Below, piece by piece: positions 5,165 through 11,465 of a stretch of DNA of 11,465 nucleotides. This DNA comes from a virus (taxonomy: Duplodnaviria; Heunggongvirae; Uroviricota; Caudoviricetes), in IMG/VR virus record IMGVR_UViG_2534681766_000006; one strand, given 5' to 3'. A program made the position numbers and the translations under genes. The notes beneath the pieces were generated by a model. The model was not told the origin of the DNA. It did not search any database and saw nothing but the letters and a program-made list of their open reading frames with translations. How positions within the stretch are numbered: position 1 is the first letter of the stretch; the number at the start of each line of letters is the position of its first letter.

Positions 5165-5839
5165 TTAGGCTTTGATTTTGTATCTTCTTGGTTTTCCTGA
5201 GAAAATCACAGTTCCAATTATAGAGCAATTACCGTTGATCTTAATGTAAGGCTCAGGCCAGTTTGGGTTTAACGCTTTGAGATAACGCTGTGTCCCATCT
5301 TCTATCAACCTTTTGAAGGTGGTTTCACCTGTATCGTGCATCAATGCAATAACGTCGTCACCGTGGCAGGCAGGTACTTCAGGATCGACAAAAATCATGT
5401 CTCCCGGGCGGTACTCATCAATCATTGAATCACCTATCACCCGCAAGATATAAGTCATTTCCCCACAGGGTACAGGGCAGGGATACGTTTCTGCTGTGCT
5501 CAAATCAACCTCAGAATATCCAACTTCTTTCCATGCTCCGGCCTGTACCCATGATATGACAGGGACTAATGTGATTTGTTTATTAGTGATTGAAACATCA
5601 GGTTTTTTTGTGATGTTCGTTGTCTGGTGTTCTTGATCGAGCCATCCGACAGGCAGGGCGAAACATTTTTCGATGTGTCGTGCCATGCTGTCACCGATAT
5701 TTTTAGTAGCACCATCTCCCATAAACCTGCTGGTCTGGGTTGGCTCGCGATCAATCATAGTGGCAAAGGAAGAATTCCCTCCAACACCATCTCTCAGTTT
5801 TCTGGCGTTAGACCGCCGGATGTCATGGATTGTTTTCAT
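5165..5839 (-). CDS. cI: CI-type prophage repressor with C-terminal S24 (LexA-like) autopeptidase domain, 224 aa
   Basis: C-terminal half aligns with P22 C2 (WVQAG.W, GDSM Ser nucleophile, TFKRL Lys, NGNCSIIG); ATG at 5837-5839 has essentially no SD, consistent with leaderless translation from PRM. Confidence 0.9.
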   Translation of the reverse strand: MKTIHDIRRSNARKLRDGVGGNSSFATMIDREPTQTSRFMGDGATKNIGDSMARHIEKCFALPVGWLDQEHQTTNITKKPDVSITNKQITLVPVISWVQAGAWKEVGYSEVDLSTAETYPCPVPCGEMTYILRVIGDSMIDEYRPGDMIFVDPEVPACHGDDVIALMHDTGETTFKRLIEDGTQRYLKALNPNWPEPYIKINGNCSIIGTVIFSGKPRRYKIKA

Positions 5840-7066: not shown

Positions 7067-7086
7067 AGGTCGGTCATGAGCACTAA
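6865..7086 (+). CDS. Hypothetical protein, probably the C-terminal part of the same gene as 6728..7066 (frame -1); the region [37 protein letters not shown] looks genuine
   Basis: Frame open from 6835; the listed start is GTG; stop overlaps the O-like start by 11 nt; one extra nucleotide near 6913-6917 would fuse the two ORFs (..CDK-VNRWF..). Confidence 0.4.
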
Positions 7087-8017
7087 ATTAACCGGCTATG
7101 TATGGGATGGTTGCGCAGCGTCAGGCATGAAATTATCCAGCGTGGCAATTATGGCCCGCCTGGCTGATTTCAGTAATGACGAAGGTGTGTGCTGGCCATC
7201 GATTGAAACCATTGCCCGCCAGATTGGCGCGGGGATGAGTACCGTCAGAACGGCTATCGCACGGCTGGAAGCAGAAGGCTGGTTAACGCGTAAGGCGCGT
7301 CGCCAGGGTAACCGCAATGCGTCGAATGTTTATCAGCTTAACGTTGCGAAGCTTCAGGCAGCGGCATTTTCTCAAGTGTCAGATTCTGACCCGTCAAAAT
7401 CTGACGCATCAAAATCTGACCCGTCAAAATTTGATGCGTCGAAATCTGGCAAAAAAGCGGGTTTTCACCCGTCAGAATCTGGCGGGGATCCGTCAGTAAA
7501 ATCAAAACATGATCCGTCAGATAAAAAACCTTCTCGTCCGGACTCTTCGCAACCGGACACGCAGACGGCTGAACAGGATTTTTTAACTCGCCATCCTGAT
7601 GCGGTTGTATTCAGCCCTAAAAAGCGCCAGTGGGGGACGCAGGATGATTTGACCTGCGCACAGTGGCTCTGGAAAAAAATCATCGCCCTGTACGAGCATG
7701 CCGCCGAATGTGACGGCGAGGTGGTTCGTCCCAAAGAACCGAACTGGACAGCCTGGGCAAACGAAATTCGCCTGATGTGTGTGCAGGATGGTCGTACTCA
7801 TAAACAAATCTGCGAGATGTACAGCCGCGTCAGTCGCGATCCGTTCTGGTGCCGTAACGTGCTCAGCCCGTCGAAGCTGCGGGAAAAATGGGATGAGCTT
7901 TCCCTGCGCTTATCGCCGTCCGTCAGCACGTACACCGAAAAACGCGAAGACCCGTACTTCAAAGCCAGTTACGACAACGTGGACTACAGCCAGATCCCGG
8001 CAGGATTCAGGGGGTGA
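7076..8017 (+). CDS. Replication initiation protein: O-like N-terminal HTH, iteron-encoded Ser/Asp/Lys linker, DnaT-like C-terminal domain; 313 aa
   Basis: N-terminus has an HTH (TVRTAIARLEAEGWL); the C-terminus ..DYSQIPAGFRG resembles the E. coli DnaT C-terminus (..SEPDSQIPPGFRG, recalled); GAGGT RBS 5 nt upstream. Confidence 0.85.
   Translation: MSTKLTGYVWDGCAASGMKLSSVAIMARLADFSNDEGVCWPSIETIARQIGAGMSTVRTAIARLEAEGWLTRKARRQGNRNASNVYQLNVAKLQAAAFSQVSDSDPSKSDASKSDPSKFDASKSGKKAGFHPSESGGDPSVKSKHDPSDKKPSRPDSSQPDTQTAEQDFLTRHPDAVVFSPKKRQWGTQDDLTCAQWLWKKIIALYEHAAECDGEVVRPKEPNWTAWANEIRLMCVQDGRTHKQICEMYSRVSRDPFWCRNVLSPSKLREKWDELSLRLSPSVSTYTEKREDPYFKASYDNVDYSQIPAGFRG
7383..7520 (+). repeat. Origin-of-replication iterons inside the initiator gene: four 15-16-bp repeats (ATYTGAC[C/G]C[G/A]TCAAA), then CCGTCAG repeats and an A-rich tract
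   Basis: Repeats at 7383-7398, 7399-7413, 7414-7428, 7429-7444; CCGTCAG at 7468-7474, 7490-7496, 7513-7519; AAAAAA at 7450-7456 and 7522-7527; classic lambdoid ori-in-O arrangement. Confidence 0.65.
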
Positions 8018-8019
8018 TC

Positions 8020-8508
8020 ATGAGTCTTTTGAATGACGTTCAGAAATTCATTGAAGCCCATCCGGGGTGTACTTCCGGAGACATTGCGGATGCTTTTGCA
8101 GGTTACTCACGACAGCGCGTTCTGCAGTCAGCAAGCAAGTTACGTCAGAGTGGGCGTGTGGCTCACCGTTGTGAAGGGGATACACGCAGACATTTCCCGC
8201 GGCTGACTGAGATACCGCAGGAGCCGGAACCGCAACCAGTTCGTGAATCCAGACCTGTGCGCAATTTCTATGTCGGCACTAACGATCCCCGGGTGATTTT
8301 GTGCCTGACCCGCCAGGCGGAAGAACTGGAGTCCAGGGGCTTATACCGTCGTGCTGCAACGGTGTGGATGGCGGCATTCCGTGAAAGCCACTCCCAGCAA
8401 GAGCGAAACAATTTTCTTGCGCGTCGTGAGCGGTGTTTACGGAAAAGCAGCAAGCGCGCTGCATCGGGTGAAGAGTGGTATCTGTCAGGGAATTACGTGG
8501 GGGCTTAA
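8020..8508 (+). CDS. PerC-family transcriptional regulator-like protein (N-terminal winged-helix-like region plus PerC-like motif), 162 aa
   Basis: Motif AEELESRGLYRRAATVWMAAF..RNNFLARRERCL resembles the PerC/Pch signature (LE..GLWRRAA..W, recalled); start ATG 8020 with GGGGG SD; stop overlaps the Dam start (TAATG). Confidence 0.6.
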   Translation: MSLLNDVQKFIEAHPGCTSGDIADAFAGYSRQRVLQSASKLRQSGRVAHRCEGDTRRHFPRLTEIPQEPEPQPVRESRPVRNFYVGTNDPRVILCLTRQAEELESRGLYRRAATVWMAAFRESHSQQERNNFLARRERCLRKSSKRAASGEEWYLSGNYVGA

Positions 8509-9161
8509 TGAGTAATAAATATTGCCAGGCGCTGGTGGAGCTGCGGAACAAACCAGCCCATGAACTGAAGGAAGTGGGCGATCAGTGGCGCACGCCGGAC
8601 AACATTTTCTGGGGAATTAACACCCTGTTTGGCCCGTTTGTTCTGGATCTGTTTACTGATGGTGATAACGCCAAATGCGCCGCGTATTACACTGCGGAAG
8701 ACAACGCGCTGGCGCATGACTGGTCAGAACGTCTTGCGGAGCTTAAAGGTGCTGCCTTTGGTAATCCCCCGTACAGCCGCGCCAGTCAGCATGAGGGGCA
8801 ATACATCACCGGCATGCGTTACATCATGAAGCATGCCAGTGCCATGCGTGATAAAGGCGGGCGCTATGTTTTCCTGATCAAAGCTGCCACCAGCGAAGTG
8901 TGGTGGCCGGAAGATGCAGACCATATTGCTTTTATTCGCGGGCGTATTGGTTTTGAACTGCCAGCCTGGTTTATCCCGAAGGACGAGAAGCAGGTGCCGA
9001 CAGGCGCTTTCTTCGCTGGTGCTATTGCTGTTTTCGACAAGACCTGGAAGGGACCGGCAATCAGCTACATCGGGCGCGATGAACTTGAGGCATGTGGTGA
9101 GGCCTTTCTGGCGCAGGTTCGCCAGCAGGCGGAAAAACTGGTCAGGGAGATGGCGGCATGA
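8508..9161 (+). CDS. Phage DNA N6-adenine methyltransferase (Dam-like), 217 aa
   Basis: Motif IV FGNPPY plus surrounding conserved context typical of phage Dam methyltransferases. Confidence 0.88.
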   Translation: MSNKYCQALVELRNKPAHELKEVGDQWRTPDNIFWGINTLFGPFVLDLFTDGDNAKCAAYYTAEDNALAHDWSERLAELKGAAFGNPPYSRASQHEGQYITGMRYIMKHASAMRDKGGRYVFLIKAATSEVWWPEDADHIAFIRGRIGFELPAWFIPKDEKQVPTGAFFAGAIAVFDKTWKGPAISYIGRDELEACGEAFLAQVRQQAEKLVREMAA

Positions 9162-9484
9162 CGACGTTAACTCAATGCCAGCAGCAGGGGCTGGATATGC
9201 TGATTTCTTACCAGCAAGAACGTGGCTTTCCGCCAACCAATCAGGAGGTGGCAACCATGCTGGGATACCGTTCGGTGAATGCAGCGGTGGAGCATCTTCG
9301 CGCACTGGAGAAAAAAGGCGTCATCACGATAAAGCGTGGCGTGGCCCGGGGGATAACTCTTCATACCGCGGTGAAGGACGACGACAGCGAGGCGGTCGGG
9401 ATTATCCGCGCACTGCTTGCCGGTGAGGAAAACGCCAGGCTGCGTGCAGCCCACTGGTTACATGAGAGGGGCCTGAAAGTATGA
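9158..9484 (+). CDS. LexA N-terminal DNA-binding-domain homolog lacking the S24 peptidase domain, 108 aa
   Basis: LTQCQQQGLDMLISYQQERGFPPTNQEVATMLGYRSVNAAVEHLRALEKKGVITI aligns at roughly 40-45% identity by eye with E. coli LexA residues ~4-70; no Ser/Lys catalytic domain; ATGA coupling to Dam. Confidence 0.8.
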   Translation: MTTLTQCQQQGLDMLISYQQERGFPPTNQEVATMLGYRSVNAAVEHLRALEKKGVITIKRGVARGITLHTAVKDDDSEAVGIIRALLAGEENARLRAAHWLHERGLKV

Positions 9485-9777
9485 AGCTGATCTTGCCTTT
9501 CCCTCCCAGCGTGAACACGTACTGGCGACACCCCAACAAAGGGGCGTTTGCTGGTAAGAGTCTGATAAGCGCAGCGGGGCGCAAATTCCAGAGCGCGGCG
9601 TGCGCAGCAATAGTTGAGCAGTTACGTCGTCTGCCGAAACCAACGTCGGCACCTGCTTCAGTGGAGATCGTGTTGTTTCCTCCGGATACCGTGGCATTTG
9701 AAGAGAAGTATGGCTCCCAGCTGGAGCTGATATTTCGTTTTATCGATCGCGCACTGGCGATTGGTGTGCTGGCCTGA
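9481..9777 (+). CDS. RusA-family (Holliday-junction resolvase)-like protein, 98 aa, with divergent or shortened C-terminal half
   Basis: N-terminus [13 protein letters not shown] matches RusA LPWPPS.N.YYRH, and ..VEIVLFPPD matches ..IECHMPD; the Asp-rich catalytic segment (RRRRDLDN.. in RusA, recalled) is not recognisable. Confidence 0.6.
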
Positions 9778-9794: not shown

Positions 9795-10178
9795 ATGCGT
9801 GATATTCAGATGGTTCTTGAACGTTGGGGAGCGTGGGCGGCTAATAATCATGAAGATGTGACCTGGTCGTCCATTGCCGCCGGTTTTAAGGGATTAATTC
9901 CTTCAAAAGTAAAATCTCGCCCGCAATGTTGTGACGATGACGCGATGATCATTTGCGGGTGCATGGCCCGTCTGAAAAAGAACAACAGCGATTTGCACGA
10001 TTTATTAGTAGATTATTATGTAGTCGGTATGACATTCATGTCACTGGCAGGTAAGCATTGCTGCTCTGATGGTTATATCGGGAAAAGGTTACAGAAGGCT
10101 GAGGGCATAATTGAAGGGATGTTAATGGCATTAGATATCCGGTTAGAGATGGATATCGTTGTTAATAACTCTAATTAA
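9795..10178 (+). CDS. Q: Late-gene antiterminator Q (small DLP12 QuuD-like type), 127 aa
   Basis: Start ATG 9795 with GGAG SD (the track's TTG 9780 is rejected); Cys-rich (CCDDD..CGC..CC); position immediately upstream of the nmpC-type porin as in DLP12. Confidence 0.75.
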
Positions 10179-10198
10179 TATGCCAATTGTTTACTGAA

Positions 10199-10229
10199 AG
10201 TTATTAAAAATGGGGCGTTGCAACGCCCC
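10199..10229 (-). terminator. Rho-independent terminator of the porin transcript
   Basis: Perfect hairpin GGGGCGTTG/CAACGCCCC (10212-10229); minus-strand RNA follows it with AUUUUUAAU; the plus strand has an A-tract instead, so it is minus-specific. Confidence 0.65.
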
Positions 10230-10367
10230 CAAAAATAAAGGGTAATATATAACAGAAGGTTTATATAGTTAGAAGCAAGGTTGTGCTCCTAAAGGAAGTG
10301 GCTTGAGGGAGCCACTTATATGTTGGGGAGGCAACGCCTCCCGCAACATATCTTTTTCGTAATCAGA
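10199..10367 (-). ncRNA. ipeX: IpeX-like 3'-UTR sRNA region of the porin gene (about 168 nt from stop to terminator)
   Basis: Two more hairpins (10296-10317 and 10326-10342) between the stop and the terminator. From my recollection of the published ipeX description, it maps between the nmpC/lc stop and its terminator in DLP12 and PA-2. Confidence 0.4.
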
Positions 10368-11465
10368 TTAGAACTGGTAAACCAGACCTACAGCAACGAT
10401 GTCATCAGTGCTTACACCGAGTGCTTTAGTGAAGTCATTTTTGTCAAGCAGGTTGATTTTGTAATCAACGAAAGTAGACATATTTTTGTTGAAGTAATAG
10501 GTTGCACCTACATCAACATATTTGACTAAGTCCTGATCGCCCCATACTCCAAGATCCTTACCTTTAGATTGCAGGTAAGCAACGGACGGACGCAGACCGA
10601 AATCGAACTGATATTGTGCAACAGCTTCGAAGTTTTGAGCTTTATTAGCAACGAAGTGATCAGCAAATACAGTCATATTCTGGGTTTCAGAATAGGTAGT
10701 GGCCAGGTAAATGTTGTTAGCGTCATATTTCAGACCTGCGGCCCAAACTTCTGCATTTTTACCGGAAGCAAATACTTCAGGAAGAACTTTCCCTGCATTA
10801 ACTTGAGTGTCGGTACGATCAGATTTCGCATAAGTTGCACCGATACCGAATCCTTCGTATTCATAGGTAGCAGAGAAACCGAAGCCATCACCGTTACCTT
10901 CGGTGTAGTTATCGAAATCGCTACGATCGTTTTTGCCTTGGTACTGAGCAGCAAAGTTCAGACCATCAACCAGACCAAAGAAGTCGTTGTTACGATAGGT
11001 TGCAACACCAGTGGTGCGACCAGTCATGAACACATCTGTTTGGGTCCAGGTATCGCCACCGAATTCTGGCAGAACGTCAGTCCACGCACCGATGTCGTAT
11101 GCTACACCGTAGTTACGGCCGTAATCGATTGAGCCGTAGTCACCGAATTTCAGGCCTGCAAATGCAAGACGGGTTTTGTCTTTGGAGGAACCTTGAGATT
11201 CAGCGCGGTTGCCTTTGAATTCATATTCCCACTGACCGAAACCAGTCAGCTGATCGTTGATTTGGGTTTCGCCTTTGAAGCCCAGACGAACATAAGTAGT
11301 ATCACCATCATCTGCATCGTTAGAGGAAAAGTAGTGCTTGGCATTAACTTTCCCGTACAGATCCAGCTTGTTACTGTCTTTATTATAAATTTCAGCTGCC
11401 TGAGCAGACATCGCCATCAGTACTGATGCAGCTACAGCAGAAATTGCCACTGTTAATTTTTTCAT
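10368..11465 (-). CDS. nmpC: Outer-membrane general porin of the OmpC/OmpF family (prophage NmpC/Lc type), 365 aa, complete
   Basis: Signal peptide [38 protein letters not shown] start, C-terminal ..VGLVYQF; start codon at the window end (11463-11465), so the promoter is outside the window. Confidence 0.93.

Follow-up and report, generated by a model that had tools for sequence, protein, structure and literature searches.

The only characterised truncated LexA homologue encoded by a phage is gp6 of GIL01, a tectivirus of Bacillus (PMC6182141). It is expressed early after induction, binds a palindrome of its own, GaCACAnnTGTGaC, and activates the late promoter P3. According to a 2024 review (PMC11442139), the main residues with which E. 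coli LexA recognises CTGT are Ser39, Asn41, Ala42 and Glu45, and an older paper also lists Glu44 as a DNA contact (PMC3091678); the contact residues used here were taken from these secondary sources. Two further systems are of interest for comparison: the LexA-controlled dinI–antirepressor–irsA operon of the Gifsy phages (PMC3121763) and lambda NinH (PMC7166090), a small protein encoded in the nin region and modelled on the DNA-binding part of a host protein. Here we describe a gene for a LexA-like protein of 108 amino acids (aa), located in a prophage stretch of 11,465 nucleotides from the IMG/VR record IMGVR_UViG_2534681766_000006; this whole stretch is referred to below as the window.

Like GIL01 gp6, with which it was compared by description, the protein has a phage-encoded LexA DNA-binding domain only. 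It differs from gp6, which stops just past the wing and is encoded by a tectivirus of a Gram-positive host, in carrying a predicted helical hairpin, in keeping the contact residues of gamma-proteobacterial LexA and in sitting in the nin region of a lambdoid prophage. With NinH it shares the small size, the nin-region location and the copied DNA-binding part; however, the host model of NinH is Fis, its fold is a Fis-type helix-turn-helix (HTH), and it binds DNA with little specificity.

Domain Organization of the LexA-like Protein

The comparisons show a conserved, phage-borne protein in which a stand-alone LexA-type winged-helix DNA-binding domain is followed by a linker and a predicted helical hairpin of 30 residues, and which is expected to be insensitive to RecA. 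The Pfam profile LexA_DNA_bind is matched over its full length by residues 1–65 (profile positions 1–65 of 65; E-value 1.7e-17, 63.4 bits, cutoff 23.7), and the nearest solved structures are those of the E. coli LexA N-terminal domain (1lea, 1jhh and 3jso; E-value about 1e-14). Peptidase_S24 (PF00717) has no match in the 108-aa protein, whereas the same search recovers the cI repressor of the prophage at 1.5e-26. The C-terminal S24 domain with its Ser119/Lys156 dyad is absent, the protein ending at residue 108 where the next open reading frame (ORF), rusA, follows. The preliminary description, which had read the gene as a LexA winged helix lacking the autopeptidase domain, is borne out by this profile search. 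Consistently, TIGR00498, the equivalog model of true LexA, aligns only at its positions 1–91 of 203 and scores 65.3 bits, below the cutoff of 110.95. Length is conserved at 104–118 aa in close and distant relatives alike, so the missing S24 domain is not a truncation artefact.

In place of the C-terminal domain of LexA the protein carries the tail AVGIIRALLAGEENARLRAAHWL, for which a short helical structure had been proposed earlier. AlphaFold2, run with a diverse alignment, indeed predicts two helices in this tail (residue ranges are given in Table 1); the mean predicted local distance difference test score (pLDDT) of the model is 85, with about 90 for both the winged helix and the tail helices and less than 50 for residues 71–74. 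The tail pattern is kept in relatives at 40–50% identity. The ratio of nonsynonymous to synonymous polymorphism, calculated from 92 distinct alleles, is 0.03 for residues 1–70 and 0.17 for residues 71–108 (linker plus tail). Both head and tail are under purifying selection, and the gene is real and functional. As modelled, the layout of head, hinge and helical module would mimic that of LexA, which also has a flexible linker after its head (PDB 1lea/1leb, 3jso), a hairpin taking the place of the S24 domain.

HMMER aligns the segment LLAGE of the tail with VAAGE of LexA, the region of the Ala84-Gly85 cleavage site. We considered the tail as a remnant cleavage site or pseudo-substrate and discarded this option, as Gly is replaced by Asn or Asp in relatives and Ala can be Val; the LLAGE segment is predicted to form a helix end and a turn. 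With neither an S24 protease domain nor a conserved Ala-Gly site, both of which E. coli LexA possesses, the protein would be beyond inactivation by RecA*.

DNA-Contact Residues

The window protein has Ser39, Asn41, Ala42 and Glu45 as in E. coli LexA, as well as the wing residues Arg64 and Gly65, which are invariant. Among about 128 close relatives, Ser39 is found in 126, Asn41 in 126, Ala42 in 116 and Glu45 in 117, and all four positions are nearly invariant in the subfamily at ≥60% identity. Differences from E. coli LexA include valine at positions 44 (Glu in LexA) and 40 (Pro) and asparagine at position 28 (Arg). Judged by these residues, it is plausible that the window protein reads CTGT-type half-sites, although specificity is not fixed across the whole family.

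Relatives in SOS-Box Operons

A sister clade (around P0135), 42% identical to the window protein, has the same tail and an N-terminal extension. A strong SOS box (17–30 bits) lies upstream of the sister-clade gene in 27 of 28 IMG/VR loci, mostly at a distance of 0.4–0.7 kb and in a few cases of up to about 1.5 kb. In the two loci that were read individually (L170 and L173), a terminator and −35/−10 elements precede the box, the latter immediately. The operon order is SOS box, dinI in many loci (phage recA in L279), an ORF of phrog_1813, the LexA-like gene, an ORF of phrog_1212, rusA or DUF968, and Q. The gene itself is probably SOS-induced in this clade, to judge by its promoters, and the family has therefore been wired repeatedly into the SOS circuit. 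In the window, by contrast, the gene belongs to the pR operon and has no SOS-box promoter of its own, which also sets it apart from lexA of E. coli.

The phrog_1813 ORF (75–96 aa) is conserved and always precedes the sister-clade gene; it may encode an antirepressor or a protein that partners the LexA-like one. In L279, a 361-aa ORF recognised by eye as a RecA homologue starts 1404 bp upstream of the LexA-like gene, directly behind the SOS box and upstream of the phrog_1813/LexA-like pair. In the L170 prophage the repressor is short and consists of an HTH only, which agrees with induction of the antirepressor type.

This layout of terminator, SOS-box promoter, dinI, small ORF and LexA-like gene is that of the Gifsy dinI–antirepressor–irsA operon (PMC3121763). 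The LexA-like gene occupies the third or second operon position, and the phrog_1212 ORF comes next, as in Gifsy-2. However, identity between Gifsy GftA and the phrog_1813 ORFs is only about 20%, and the Gifsy-2 irsA homologue STM1020 is a DUF1367/NinB-like protein (PHROG 319) and not a LexA-type domain. Identity of the LexA-like gene with Gifsy irsA was rejected on the latter ground, and tblastn with LexA-like queries found no Gifsy phage.

SOS Boxes of Carrier Phages

Complete phages carrying the gene hold canonical SOS boxes in three places: upstream of dinI homologues (21–24 bits at the dinI promoters of cdtI, mEp460 and mEp390), in the mEp460-type repressor gene and in a late-region methylase. 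The last of these boxes, TACTGTAAAAATAAACAGTG (22.5 bits), spans codons 3–9 of an N6/N4 DNA methylase gene located between Q and the lysis genes, and has the appearance of a LexA site within the late operon. Phages of Klebsiella and Citrobacter and one distant prophage have kept the methylase box as well, the Klebsiella version with a changed sequence that still scores high.

The methylase and the LexA-like gene co-occur in 28 of 29 phage records and 63 of 65 IMG/VR loci. We rejected the LexA-like protein as a dedicated methylase regulator, because this co-occurrence reflects linkage of the whole block and the box is kept without the gene.

A near-perfect SOS box, either TACTGTTTTTACATACAGTA (25.8 bits) or TACTGTTTTTATATACAGTA (27.1 bits), was observed in about 22 IMG/VR loci, 2.9–5.3 kb upstream of the LexA-like gene. 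In mEp460 (L005, 31970–31989) a near-perfect box falls within the coding region of the immunity repressor, which is of the S24 type.

Proposed Function and Alternatives

We tentatively propose, as a possibility that we would not yet call probable, that the protein forms a tail-mediated dimer on CTGT-type operators and serves during lytic growth as an uncleavable surrogate or competitor of LexA. The hairpin would pair two subunits, and the recognition helix, keeping the primary contacts of LexA, would read CTGT half-sites in SOS boxes or close variants of them. Made from the pR operon as a delayed-early product, with its translation coupled to that of dam and rusA, the protein would occupy CTGT-type operators after the destruction of host LexA, or alongside it, and LexA-controlled promoters would be re-repressed or retuned. 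Target promoters, on host and phage DNA, could include those of dinI, the late-region methylase and antirepressor-type operons. The preliminary description had suggested RecA-insensitive binding to SOS boxes or an effect on host LexA, which would be plausible given the conserved primary contacts and the SOS-box promoters of relatives. Kim and Little are said to have found in 1992 that the isolated N-terminal fragment of LexA binds operators weakly, as dimers forming on the DNA.

A number of observations weigh against this proposal. Dimerisation of two subunits by the hairpin is something that we infer, and the tail helices have a hydrophobic moment no different from that of shuffled sequence; moreover, the half-site spacing depends on the geometry of the dimer, for which pairing through the hairpin is only a candidate. 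Position 44 is never Glu in the tail-bearing family but is Glu in 74 of 98 other LexA-type matches, and Glu45 is also lost in some distant members (SSPNAVALHL, RSQNTVFIHL). The members without Glu45 still stand behind SOS-box promoters, so CTGT need not be what is read throughout the family. No exact CTGT-N8-ACAG occurs in the window, as had been noted by eye; there are five one-mismatch matches, with 3.8 expected by chance, and the best site scores 6.9 bits on a 20-site SOS-box matrix, compared to 12.6–27 bits for real boxes. Among carrier phages, rusA, kilA-N, DUF968 and perC co-occur with the gene just as strongly as the methylase does (62–64 of 65 loci), and the methylase box persists in phiNP, L103 and L145, all of which lack the LexA-like gene. 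No binding experiment on any family member was found in the literature, and the precedent of GIL01 gp6 (PMC6182141), with its own palindrome and its role as an activator, would by analogy point elsewhere.

The alternative that survives best, although we consider it unlikely, follows this precedent: the protein may be a phage-specific transcription factor whose captured LexA head has diverged towards a phage palindrome, and which activates or represses a phage promoter, e.g., that of the lex–rusA–kilA-N–DUF968 block or one near Q and pR′. The late genes of lambdoid phages are controlled by Q. The family-wide loss of Glu44 and the variation of positions 40, 43, 44 and 45 among distant members agree with such divergence. 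So does the constant company of the gene: in the close family rusA begins at its stop codon in 56 of 56 loci, followed by kilA-N (56 of 56) and DUF968 (55 of 56), and a linked operator could sit there. Nevertheless, a search for inverted repeats that might serve as operators, made around the gene and in its relatives, returned nothing convincing, that is, no conserved candidate palindrome. The window subfamily keeps all four primary LexA contacts under very strong purifying selection, and in the window itself kilA-N and DUF968 are deleted while the LexA-like ORF is intact.

The invariable adjacency to rusA could also be taken to mean that the protein is an accessory factor of recombination or junction resolution acting with RusA, its head being used for DNA binding or bending and not for transcription. 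Relatives at 40–50% identity have rusA adjacent or one gene off in five of six contexts, and NinH (PMC7166090) shows that a host DNA-binding protein can be mimicked from the nin region. We nevertheless find this improbable. Gene order in the lambdoid nin region is conserved anyway, L174 and much of the SOS-promoter clade have no detectable SfV-type rusA beside the gene, and the window has its rusA destroyed and its LexA-like ORF intact; the conserved base-specific contact residues, in turn, argue for sequence-specific binding.

Least credible of all is a modulation of SOS or induction through protein contacts (of the tail or head with host LexA, RecA* or the phrog_1813 protein) to which DNA binding would be secondary: the sister-clade gene does always stand behind the phrog_1813 ORF in an SOS-box operon resembling that of Gifsy (PMC3121763), and GIL01 gp7 is an example of a phage protein that modulates LexA by binding it directly, but the window subfamily lacks the phrog_1813 partner, the strongest purifying selection falls on the DNA-binding head, and we found neither a homologous protein known to bind LexA or RecA nor a match of the ORF to the PADLOC anti-phage defence models.

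Returning to the uncleavable LexA surrogate, its widest version would place a RecA-proof repressor in about 40% of E. coli genomes, including Shiga toxin 2 (Stx2)-converting phages, that re-closes the SOS regulon after prophage induction. We regard this version as rather doubtful. If true, it would silence host SOS functions, SOS-controlled toxins and the LexA-controlled antirepressor operons of rival prophages, and would give the sister clade an SOS-induced negative feedback on its own operon. More generally, if SOS boxes are bound, a large fraction of E. coli and Shigella strains, as well as Shiga-toxin phages, would hold an uncleavable competitor or substitute for LexA. Its effects could extend to the duration of the SOS response following induction, to mutagenesis and persistence in the presence of DNA-damaging antibiotics, to cross-talk among prophages of the same cell, and to Stx phage induction. 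If a phage-specific site is bound instead, this would be the second case after GIL01 gp6 of a LexA head recruited as a phage regulator, and the first in Gram-negative lambdoid phages. The function can be tested directly with one small protein and standard reporters.

Distribution and Annotation

The novelty implied by the preliminary description does not hold: the gene is not new as a sequence, and the family is common and already annotated, although these names are annotation only. PHROG 362 ("transcriptional repressor") matches the full length of the protein including the tail (E-value 4e-58, residues 1–108 against 1–106 of 106). The protein is 94.4% identical to SfV orf42, which is the same protein in the same place directly upstream of rusA; its identity is 94–99% to SfV orf42, cdtI orf48, mEp460 gp46 and genes of SfII, SfIV and Stx2a/2c/2k phages. 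The gene is present at ≥95% identity in 2232 of 5426 complete E. coli genomes, where it is annotated as "LexA family transcriptional regulator" (the name also used by NCBI), "LexA family protein" or, wrongly, "LexA repressor". No study of SfV orf42 or of enterobacterial LexA-like phage proteins was found in the literature.

An exhaustive profile search recovered the same architecture, with the same tail and a length of 104–118 aa, at 40–50% identity in other enterobacterial prophages. A profile search of genome contigs with the family alignment returned mostly host lexA genes (Halomonas and other bacteria). Proteins with two LexA-type winged helices in tandem and no S24 domain were found in other bacteria and metagenomes (P0132, P0136, P0146, P0154 and P0159), which suggests that a LexA head normally needs a partner. 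Such tandem heads represent another route to two heads without the LexA dimerisation domain.

Gene Order of the Prophage

The prophage in the window is lambdoid and of the SfV/CPS-53 type; features of the window are listed in Table 1. The region 9795–11465, with a quuD-type Q (the gene is labelled quuD in E. coli genomes) and a porin gene, is DLP12-like and 100% identical in many E. coli genomes. As the left part is SfV/CPS-53-like and the right end DLP12-like, the prophage is therefore mosaic.

Table 1. Features of the window, with related sites in other loci.
Feature	Position	Strand	Evidence or remarks
Integrase	1–1164	minus	
Excisionase, then yfdT/S/R/Q-like genes			after integrase
S24-type cI repressor	5165–5839	minus	next cro and a cII-like gene
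O-type replication gene	7076–8017		
PerC/yfdN homologue	8014–8508		PerC-family activator, yfdN-like, 164 aa
Phage N-6-adenine methyltransferase (Dam)	8508–9161	+	PF05869 and TIGR01712 matches; start overlaps PerC/yfdN stop
Shine–Dalgarno AGGGAG (9144–9149) and ATGA overlap of dam stop and ORF start	9144–9161	+	read from sequence
LexA-like ORF	9158–9484	+	ATG start, 108 aa plus stop; Pfam, NCBIfam and PHROG matches
LexA-type winged helix-turn-helix domain, residues 1–70	9158–9367	+	
Recognition helix, residues 39–46, SVNAAVEH	9272–9295	+	alignments, family residue counts
Predicted flexible linker, residues 71–74	9368–9379	+	pLDDT < 50; indels here among relatives
Predicted helical hairpin, residues 75–103 (75–88, 93–103)	9380–9466	+	candidate dimerisation element replacing S24 domain; pLDDT about 90
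rusA remnant ORF	9481–9777	+	ATG overlaps LexA-like stop; PHROG 34 and PF06147
QuuD-type antiterminator Q	9795–10178	+	PF06530, E-value 1e-53; ends early-right operon holding the LexA-like ORF
Porin gene (nmpC/ompC-like)		opposite to Q	convergent to Q; runs off window
Sister-clade loci	L170, 4560; L173, 4561; L174, 513; L255–L281; L288		
Methylase SOS box	L003 (SfV), 34170–34189; L004 (cdtI), 44083; L005 (mEp460), 41021; L166, 8071; L167, 9067; L173, 7739		

The dam stop codon TGA (9159–9161) overlaps the ATG of the LexA-like ORF (9158–9160), with AGGGAG located 8 nt upstream of the start, and the LexA-like stop codon (9482–9484) overlaps the ATG of the next ORF (9481), both junctions reading ATGA. 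Translational coupling between dam and a RusA-like gene, suggested previously, is confirmed by these overlaps, with the qualification that the RusA-like gene is a remnant. The PerC/dam junction (8506–8510) is a TAATG stop/start overlap. Through the overlapping junctions, translation is coupled all along the series from PerC over dam and the LexA-like gene to rusA. No sigma-70-like site is present just upstream of the LexA-like ORF; together with the coupled junctions, this makes the gene read as a member of the early-right operon, and the nin-equivalent position assigned to it earlier, between dam and the rusA remnant, is upheld.

In the close family the gene preceding the LexA-like one is dam in 42 loci and perC in 14, and the O, Q and lysis modules vary. 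A DNA methyltransferase gene often precedes the LexA-like gene also in relatives at 40–50% identity. The window has the same junction with rusA as the close family, rusA being truncated.

In the truncated ORF, the 69 codons that open rusA are joined to the 30 that close a DUF968/HNH gene; PHROG 34 matches its residues 1–69 and PF06147 its residues 69–95. A blastn comparison with SfV shows that the fusion arose through a deletion of about 1.9 kb (SfV 30795–32707), which removed the 3′ end of rusA, the kilA-N gene orf44 and most of DUF968. At the deletion junction (9683–9688) the two SfV alignments share 6 bp. The contiguous fusion arrangement occurs in no complete E. coli genome of the collection.

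A 7 + 7 bp inverted repeat, GCCACCAG-N6-TGGTGGC, was observed within the dam coding sequence (8886–8907), at the ATSEVWWP motif, and also at L168 (2546) and L169 (4210). Its arms are kept in diverged dam genes and its spacer varies; the repeat may simply reflect the Trp-Trp codons.
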